From assembly GCA_048498835.1 (NCBI GenBank), contig JBEHXF010000034.1:1-22787 (forward strand): a stretch of 22,787 nucleotides of DNA, given 5' to 3'. Source of the DNA: Chlamydiota bacterium (GTDB taxonomy: Bacteria; Chlamydiota; Chlamydiia; Chlamydiales; SM23-39). A program made the translations under genes and the position numbers. Under the pieces are notes generated by a model. That model searched no databases and was not told where the DNA came from. It was given only the letters and a program-made list of their open reading frames with translations. The stretch's first letter is position 1. Each line of letters opens with the position of its first letter. This document shows, piece after piece, positions 16,210-16,330 of the stretch.

Positions 16210-16258
16210 ACAAAAATCCAAAAAAAATGTTAGAAAAGGAAAAAACTAAAAAAAGAAT

Positions 16259-16330
16259 TTAATGAGAATGATGATGGAGAGAAGAAACAGAAGAGAAGAT
16301 AACGAAAGATTTTTTGTAGGTCTGTTTCAT
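16259..16330 (-). CDS. Putative histidine leader (attenuator) peptide MKQTYKKSFVIFSSVSSLHHHSH
   Basis: Hand translation ATG 16330 to TAA 16261-16259; four CAT codons among the last five; 49 nt upstream of the symporter ATG on the same strand. Confidence 0.75.
   Translation of the reverse strand: MKQTYKKSFVIFSSVSSLHHHSH

Follow-up and report, generated by a model that had tools for sequence, protein, structure and literature searches.

A candidate histidine-sensing leader peptide in a hairpin-free leader upstream of a chlamydial sodium:solute symporter

The window analysed here, the whole stretch of 22,787 nucleotides, carries on its minus strand a gene for a sodium:solute symporter and, directly ahead of it, a short upstream open reading frame (uORF). 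The coordinates of all features are collected in Table 1. Translation of the minus-strand ORF 16330..16259 gives MKQTYKKSFVIFSSVSSLHHHSH*. Its 72 nt contain 19 C but only 4 G, six of its codons are TCT, and a spacer of 49 nt with 34 T separates it from the transporter ATG at 16209. A preliminary description of this DNA had reported the uORF coordinates, the 19 C/4 G composition and the spacer of 49 nt, and all were reproduced exactly. At the position of the candidate uORF ribosome binding site, close relatives carry GGAGG or GAGG. Histidine runs of this kind are rare in the genome of origin. HHH was found in 2 of 2918 intergenic short ATG ORFs, and a uORF with at least four His lay within 420 nt upstream of 3 of 1375 genes. 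One of the other two such uORFs, in a type III export (sctR-sctT) cluster, probably just overlaps a small gene in another frame. In the same genome hisS has no His leader and no match to histidase was detected. A genome-wide scan for further C-rich, G-poor leaders yielded 13 candidates, none of the others convincing, and a search of viral contigs and plasmids found no relative.

Elsewhere in the window, two membrane-anchored sulfatase-domain paralogs (PF00884; 5528-7417 and 8855-10747) flank an ORF that by its motifs resembles a thioredoxin reductase-thioredoxin fusion (7405-8787). Two adjoining TPR proteins lie at 18057-20942, the first with a six-His run near its N-terminus, and a UGP3-like UDP-glucose pyrophosphorylase (PF25441, PF01704) is encoded at 965-3061.

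Table 1. Features of the leader and transporter locus in the window
Feature	Position	Strand	Basis
Sodium:solute symporter (PF00474), 441 aa, 1 His; proposed histidine importer	14884..16209	-	Profile, predicted structure, homologs
U-rich spacer of 49 nt, no GC-rich hairpin; candidate Rho release region; weak transporter RBS	16210..16258	-	
C-rich, G-poor unstructured zone around the His codons; candidate rut site	16232..16321	-	22 C, 3 G, MFE -0.4 kcal/mol; putative function
Leader uORF, 23 codons, four His codons (all CAT) at the end, then TAA	16259..16330	-	Sequence and ortholog conservation
His-codon cluster, codons 19-23; proposed tRNA-His sensor and stall site	16262..16276	-	Sequence; frame test of in-phase CAY clusters
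Candidate uORF RBS, GAGAG, 6 nt 5' of ATG	16337..16341	-	Read from sequence

The downstream gene had been taken for a sodium:solute symporter, and the PF00474 SSF profile bears this out (69.7 bits, cut-off 22.8); the TIGR00813 score of 65.7 stays under its cut-off of 184. A structure model (pLDDT 92, TM 0.86 to CHT1) matches the SLC5 fold. Choline transporters are the nearest structures, and the substrate is not assigned by structure. Residues A307, S310 and T311 are nearly invariant among orthologs and correspond to what we take to be the Na2 site. The protein is the ortholog of C. pneumoniae CPn0486 ('putative proline permease'), and its homologs are named proline permease or pantothenate symporter in the databases. 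Its scores are far below the cut-offs for PutP (TIGR02121, 28.5 vs 515.5 bits) and PanF (TIGR02119, 58.4 vs 328.05 bits). Apart from the leader, the gene neighbours of the transporter are not conserved. A protein made during starvation for an amino acid is expected to avoid that residue. With 1 His in 441 residues, the transporter has the lowest His content among 43 membrane proteins of its own genome (mean 1.55%). Leader-bearing orthologs average 0.21% His, and 34 of 69 have none at all; leaderless orthologs are likewise His-poor (0.40%). Among full-length paralogs, 8 of 9 contain 3-10 His.

Conservation of the leader was tested across the phylum, where 151 of 400 genomes (one unscored) gave a transporter match at E<=1e-30. 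For the ortholog loci, 11 matches were left out and one was skipped as it had no upstream DNA. From 165 collected loci, 10 distant paralogs were set apart; removal of 5 others (2 duplicates, 1 broken locus and 2 lacking upstream DNA) left 150. As a strict test we required an ATG uORF of 8-60 codons within 420 nt upstream with at least four His in 8 codons. Such a uORF was found at 71 of the 150 loci, compared with a mean of 0.1 and a maximum of 1 in 30 dinucleotide shuffles, and at none of the 10 distant paralogs. The proposed check for His-rich uORFs in orthologs thus came out positive. Runs of other amino acids fell well short of this (Ser 25, shuffles 10.9; Ala 6, shuffles 0.8). The frame was tested on 73 in-phase CAY clusters: a short ATG ORF encloses the cluster in the His frame in 71 cases, and in 6 cases in each of the two alternative frames; therefore selection acts on the His codons. 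The His uORF is confirmed as lying above chance, by the own-genome counts as well as by the ortholog counts. The leader sequence is of low complexity, and one could regard the uORF as an untranslated chance product of a pyrimidine tract. The frame test, the ortholog counts and the occurrence of the leader before his operons (see below) speak against this reading, which is largely refuted and to which we give hardly any weight.

Adding one leader with a GTG start to the 71 ATG leaders gives a set of 72. These have a median length of 34.5 codons, and the last His stands 0-3 codons ahead of the stop in 66 of them. The stop is TAA in 58, and CAT makes up 88% of the His codons. Spacers range from 39 to 280 nt, and insertions are tolerated. 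In three loci (L105, L043, L277) the spacer holds a racemase-like gene remnant or repeat-like insertions and the leader is still intact. Outside the His run the environmental leaders have a common composition and no common sequence. The strict test was failed by 79 of the 150 orthologs; leaders with 2-3 His and leaders moved ahead of inserted genes explain part of these failures. A further set of 80 loci from named genomes, partly overlapping the 150, had the leader nearby in 46 cases and further upstream, before inserted genes, in 10; the remaining 24 were without any leader in the flank examined.

Proteins under the names Babeliales, Dependentiae, Legionellales and Alphaproteobacteria also belong to the transporter subfamily. 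For a Babeliales-like clade, 80 metagenome loci were fetched and 13 dropped (short, duplicate or without a start). The leader was present in 17 of the remaining 67, or in 22 when at least three His were accepted. In a FastTree phylogeny of 222 sequences, leaders occur in both large chlamydial clades and in the Babeliales-like clade. This spread over three clades suggests that the leader is an ancestral feature, with losses.

The small-genome genus, which includes four loci named Chlamydia, showed a different pattern. An M-started uORF is kept at 19 of 19 loci (18 distinct). Its motif ends in an invariant Gly, Leu and CAT-encoded His and has accumulated many synonymous changes, and Arg/Tyr positions swap with His in some species. 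With only 1-3 His, these leaders fail the test for at least four. Here the sensor may have been tuned down, or it may have turned into a peptide-level arrest or multi-amino-acid sensor. The listed transporter matches do not include four genomes of the same genus (G063, G066, G070, G072). One Babeliales-like leader (L317) ends in a motif that resembles that of Chlamydia, RYLH followed by R, which suggests convergence on an R/Y/H variant of the leader.

The link to histidine was examined through the biosynthetic genes. Among 400 genomes of the phylum, HisD was found in 6. It has a full score in 5 of them, and those 5 carry a purH-hisG-hisD-hisC-hisB-hisH-hisF-hisA operon. The genes were typed on one locus (L338), and the remaining four operons were assigned by the same order and N-termini. 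A His leader stands directly before purH in all 5 of these sampled genomes. These leaders are built alike, Ser/Phe/Leu-rich with a His run, a stop and a U-rich spacer, and the distance to purH is 90-147 nt in the four measured. Three of the five are clearly related, and the operons therefore represent perhaps three independent cases. As the same leader type heads the purH-his operons, the leader is tied to histidine. No close transporter ortholog was found in the 5 his-operon genomes. Given its presence in 151 of 400 genomes this would occur by chance with a probability of ~0.09, kin not being independent, so that mutual exclusion of ortholog and operon is suggestive only. The operons themselves (L334-L338) place purH at their head under the His leader, where it presumably recycles the by-product AICAR, and hisC is fused to a HAD-type domain. 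In two of them a 13-bp hairpin lies just past the leader stop, with a U-run before and not after it (L334:2076-2120, L338:1886-1930), a possible pause or 3' protection element.

The genome of the window itself, which is 97% complete, gave no match for HisG, HisB or HisD, all of which were detected in 14 of 14 control genomes. Its rho gene scores above the cut-off; in the phylum, 395 of 400 genomes have rho. Both points had been proposed as checks, and both came out in favour of the histidine-sensing interpretation, which is largely supported by our data. From the sequence comparisons, the uORF is very probably translated and senses charged tRNA-His. The leader stands before a His-poor transporter and before his genes. 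Its most likely role is therefore to turn on the uptake of histidine when host-dependent chlamydiae run short. That His shortage turns the downstream gene on, and that this gene would import histidine or a direct source of it, we regard as probable, with somewhat less assurance than the sensing step.

Alternatively, the His-rich peptide itself could be functional, as a CruR-like metal sensor or an arrest peptide, with a transporter for proline, pantothenate, a metal or an imidazole compound. The database names of the homologs and the choline transporters among the nearest structures would fit, as would the Chlamydia leader, which is conserved as a peptide with R/Y replacing H, and the one subclade that adds a racemase-like gene and a protein with a class-I-synthetase/CDPS-like fold. 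We nevertheless consider it improbable: the his operons bear the same leader, the PutP and PanF scores (28.5 of 515.5 and 58.4 of 328 bits) oppose those substrates, the His avoidance of the transporter opposes a non-histidine substrate, and the environmental leaders share composition alone outside the His run.

The subclade just mentioned comprises seven loci (L187, L195, L198, L225, L227, L232, L239; e.g. L198:559-2496) with the order His leader, Asp/Glu-racemase-family gene (PF01177), ~300-aa protein and SSS. The ~300-aa protein had no Pfam match. Its structure model is weakly like cyclodipeptide synthases and class Ic tRNA synthetases (Z 8.2, rmsd 4.5, 182 aligned; TyrRS Z 7.8). The cluster is possibly a His-controlled pathway for D-amino acids or tRNA-dependent peptides. 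A distant homolog of the ~300-aa protein (E 7e-12), the racemase-like gene and a 3-His short ORF (6741-6788) also adjoin a cluster at L339:2049-8646, which holds an ArAAP transporter and HisS-like, degenerate HisD-like and HisZ/HisS-like genes, all under cut-offs.

We then turned to the RNA. A stretch with no more than two G measures 83 nt in the window, with a median of 57.5 across leaders. The C/G ratio is ~0.9 upstream, climbs to 2.9-15 within 30 nt on either side of the first His and is still 1.8 at +30 to +45 nt, beyond the leader stop. Four-fold sites in the zone are 80% pyrimidine and 7% G, compared with 57% and 19% in the transporter CDS. Synonymous sites thus prefer U/C and shun G, and therefore the RNA is selected beyond the peptide. 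At these sites C is equally frequent in zone and CDS (0.26 each), and the bias is mainly a gain of U and a loss of G and A; it is therefore not specific to Rho. It had been proposed that the TCT codons might sense Ser as well. This did not stand: the excess of Ser runs given above, with TCT/TCC as 74% of the codons, fits selection at the RNA level, and the codons look like part of the pyrimidine-rich RNA. Folding energy of the zone was -0.4 kcal/mol in the window, -5.3 (median) for the leaders and -15.6 for own-genome controls, a comparison that is composition-matched for the window only. The zone of the window is less folded than every control upstream window sampled from 300 genes of the same genome.

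No terminator-like or promoter-like site was detected in 16000-16700. Terminators are not conserved in the other leaders either: the best spacer hairpin averaged -4.3 kcal/mol compared with -3.5 in shuffles, and only 7 of 72 loci have a hairpin at or below -9 kcal/mol ahead of a U-run. This bears out the claim, made from the window, that a terminator hairpin is lacking. A search of window positions 15500-17000 against Rfam returned just two unrelated sub-threshold matches, and 10 loci including five his operons returned none.

Based on these features, we propose that the output would be Rho-dependent termination, with a ribosome stalled at the His codons masking the Rho site; we put the probability of this reading at roughly 0.55. 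When His is sufficient, the ribosome would run to the uORF stop and then leave. The freed pyrimidine-rich stretch would load Rho, and transcription would end within the spacer or soon after entering the gene. Under a shortage of His-tRNA, the ribosome would stall on the CAT codons in the middle of the stretch and mask it, and RNA polymerase would go on into the transporter gene. By geometry, a ribosome stalled on the His run would sit over the centre of the zone. Chlamydial Rho is active and sensitive to bicyclomycin, according to the available text of PMC7755916. A point against the Rho model is that a rut site within a translated ORF requires gaps between ribosomes.

A translational output was considered for the same His sensor. 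The zone and its CAT codons would pair with the SD/AUG of the transporter, a His stall would free the start, and Rho, if involved, would act via polarity only. CAT is the complement of AUG, and its 88% share of leader His codons is in line with such pairing. Cognate duplexes average -10.0 kcal/mol compared with -9.35 for non-cognate ones (permutation P 0.004, kin not independent), an excess not explained by composition, and 17 of 72 loci reach -13.5 or better. Modelled SD/AUG accessibility gains more than 0.15 at 12 of 72 loci and loses as much at none. The mean shift, however, is only from 0.39 to 0.43, and the cognate pair ranks in the top tenth at only 16 of 72 loci. Furthermore, a pyrimidine tract pairs with any purine-rich SD, spacers as long as 280 nt disfavour pairing, and the duplex in the window is weak (-4.6 kcal/mol, z -0.7). 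We therefore rate this output clearly below termination by Rho, though both may coexist within the leader family.

Less likely still is an output in which the stalled ribosome shields U-rich RNA from endonucleolytic decay, or suppresses Rho-free pausing and release at a hairpin-less U-tract. The U-rich spacers (at least 12 T in the first 25 nt past the stop at 48 of 72 loci) and the predominance of U gain favour it. In C. trachomatis ytgCR, Rho-independent polarity after hungry Trp codons is described, of opposite sign (PMC7755916, in part). The avoidance of G and the preference for C-rich codons (TCT/TCC, CTT/CTC, TTC), centred on the His run, are a better fit to Rho.

Transcript data were available for two orthologous loci. 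For CPn0486 a transcription start site (TSS) is listed at 567946, with the annotated start at 567784 (PMC3333780, supplementary file 2). Transferred to L145, whose protein belongs to the C. pneumoniae 'proline permease' cluster, this TSS lies 210 nt before the ATG of the 444-aa form and 27 nt before the uORF ATG, assuming that the C. pneumoniae strains are colinear here (1 residue differs). A start downstream of the uORF had been named as an observation that would count against the leader; in this one ortholog with a mapped TSS, it lies upstream. The 444-aa start aligns with all orthologs, and the 460-aa annotation of L145/CPn0486 probably begins 16 codons too early. The word stem 'attenuat' does not occur in the available part of PMC3333780, and the available part of PMC5723314 lists Cpn0486 as a proline permease that is up under hypoxia. 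At a Parachlamydia-type locus (L050), an RNA contig spans the full uORF (2963-3091) in 2 of 4 runs of one study (2903-3128 and 2891-3102). No contig in the 4 runs connects the leader with the CDS by 31 nt. The depths of the contigs are 62-65 vs 10-18, and such assembled contigs cannot rank RNA levels or map ends. For the window, a promoter scan found no sigma-70 consensus near the uORF, and only 22 of 72 leaders have a loose -35/-10 pair; therefore the uORF is possibly reached by read-through from the hydrolase gene 55 nt upstream.

Taken together, the leader would be a minimal attenuator that is invisible to terminator-based screens. For a transporter that C. pneumoniae and relatives have annotated as a permease for proline or pantothenate, it points to a substrate that can be tested, and it suggests a candidate route to host histidine for His-auxotrophic chlamydiae. 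Leader and cognate-residue avoidance in combination can also serve to infer what other orphan transporters of intracellular bacteria carry. A wider generalization is tentative, and we hold it to be somewhat doubtful as a whole: a hairpin-free attenuator class, with cognate codons as the core of a Rho loading site, might be ancestral to an SSS histidine-importer subfamily that unrelated intracellular bacteria share (Chlamydiota and Babeliales/Dependentiae; some homologs also bear the names Legionellales and Alphaproteobacteria). It would be portable to inserted genes and his operons and remodelled in Chlamydia to a peptide-constrained R/Y-for-H leader, maybe an arrest peptide or Arg/Tyr sensor too.

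The preliminary description knew of no His attenuator in chlamydiae, and none was found in the literature searched, nor was an SSS histidine importer; subscription and Russian-language attenuator surveys lay outside this coverage, and a conference paper on attenuators of Actinobacteria is cited in PMC4833913. In the parts of PMC9413887 that were accessible, SSS, symporter and chlamydiae are not mentioned. The source does describe HisXYZ* (ABC) and YuiF as known or predicted histidine transporters, likewise His-regulated importers in auxotrophs. PutP and PanF share the SSS fold with the window protein, which is far under their cut-offs. Within the chlamydiae, the WWW motif of C. trachomatis YtgCR is likewise a run of cognate codons that senses an amino acid (PMC7755916). 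It differs in lying within a gene, in acting in trans via the repressor and in being Rho-independent. The same source, as far as available, reports C. trachomatis to be without TrpL-mediated attenuation; the leader would add amino-acid sensing by a leader peptide to a phylum for which TrpL attenuation is reported missing.

The nearest sensors are hisL of the enterobacterial his operon and the His attenuators of the Bacillus cereus group and other Firmicutes, short uORFs whose tandem His codons sense charged tRNA-His, likewise placed before his operons (PMC9413887, PMC2965389, in the parts available). The main target of the chlamydial leader is an SSS transporter, unlike that of hisL. The hisL type has terminator and antiterminator hairpins, and the chlamydial leader has none conserved and no Rfam match; hisL attenuation may combine intrinsic and Rho-dependent termination (2025 review PMC12360218, Table 2). 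On the output side, tnaC, speFL and Bordetella cruR have the same geometry, a stalled ribosome that masks a rut site beside or inside the uORF, and cruR is nearest in logic, with ligand shortage leading to a stall that turns an importer on (PMC12360218, available sections). These three stall by a ligand-responsive arrest peptide, whereas the chlamydial signal is apparently hungry cognate codons. No conserved peptide was seen beyond the His run in the environmental chlamydial leaders. The chlamydial leader is therefore probably a sensor like hisL, yet with respect to hairpins and Rfam not a classical hisL attenuator. By analogy it resembles the rut-masking class, and its design would join a hisL-like sensor to a tnaC/cruR-like output.
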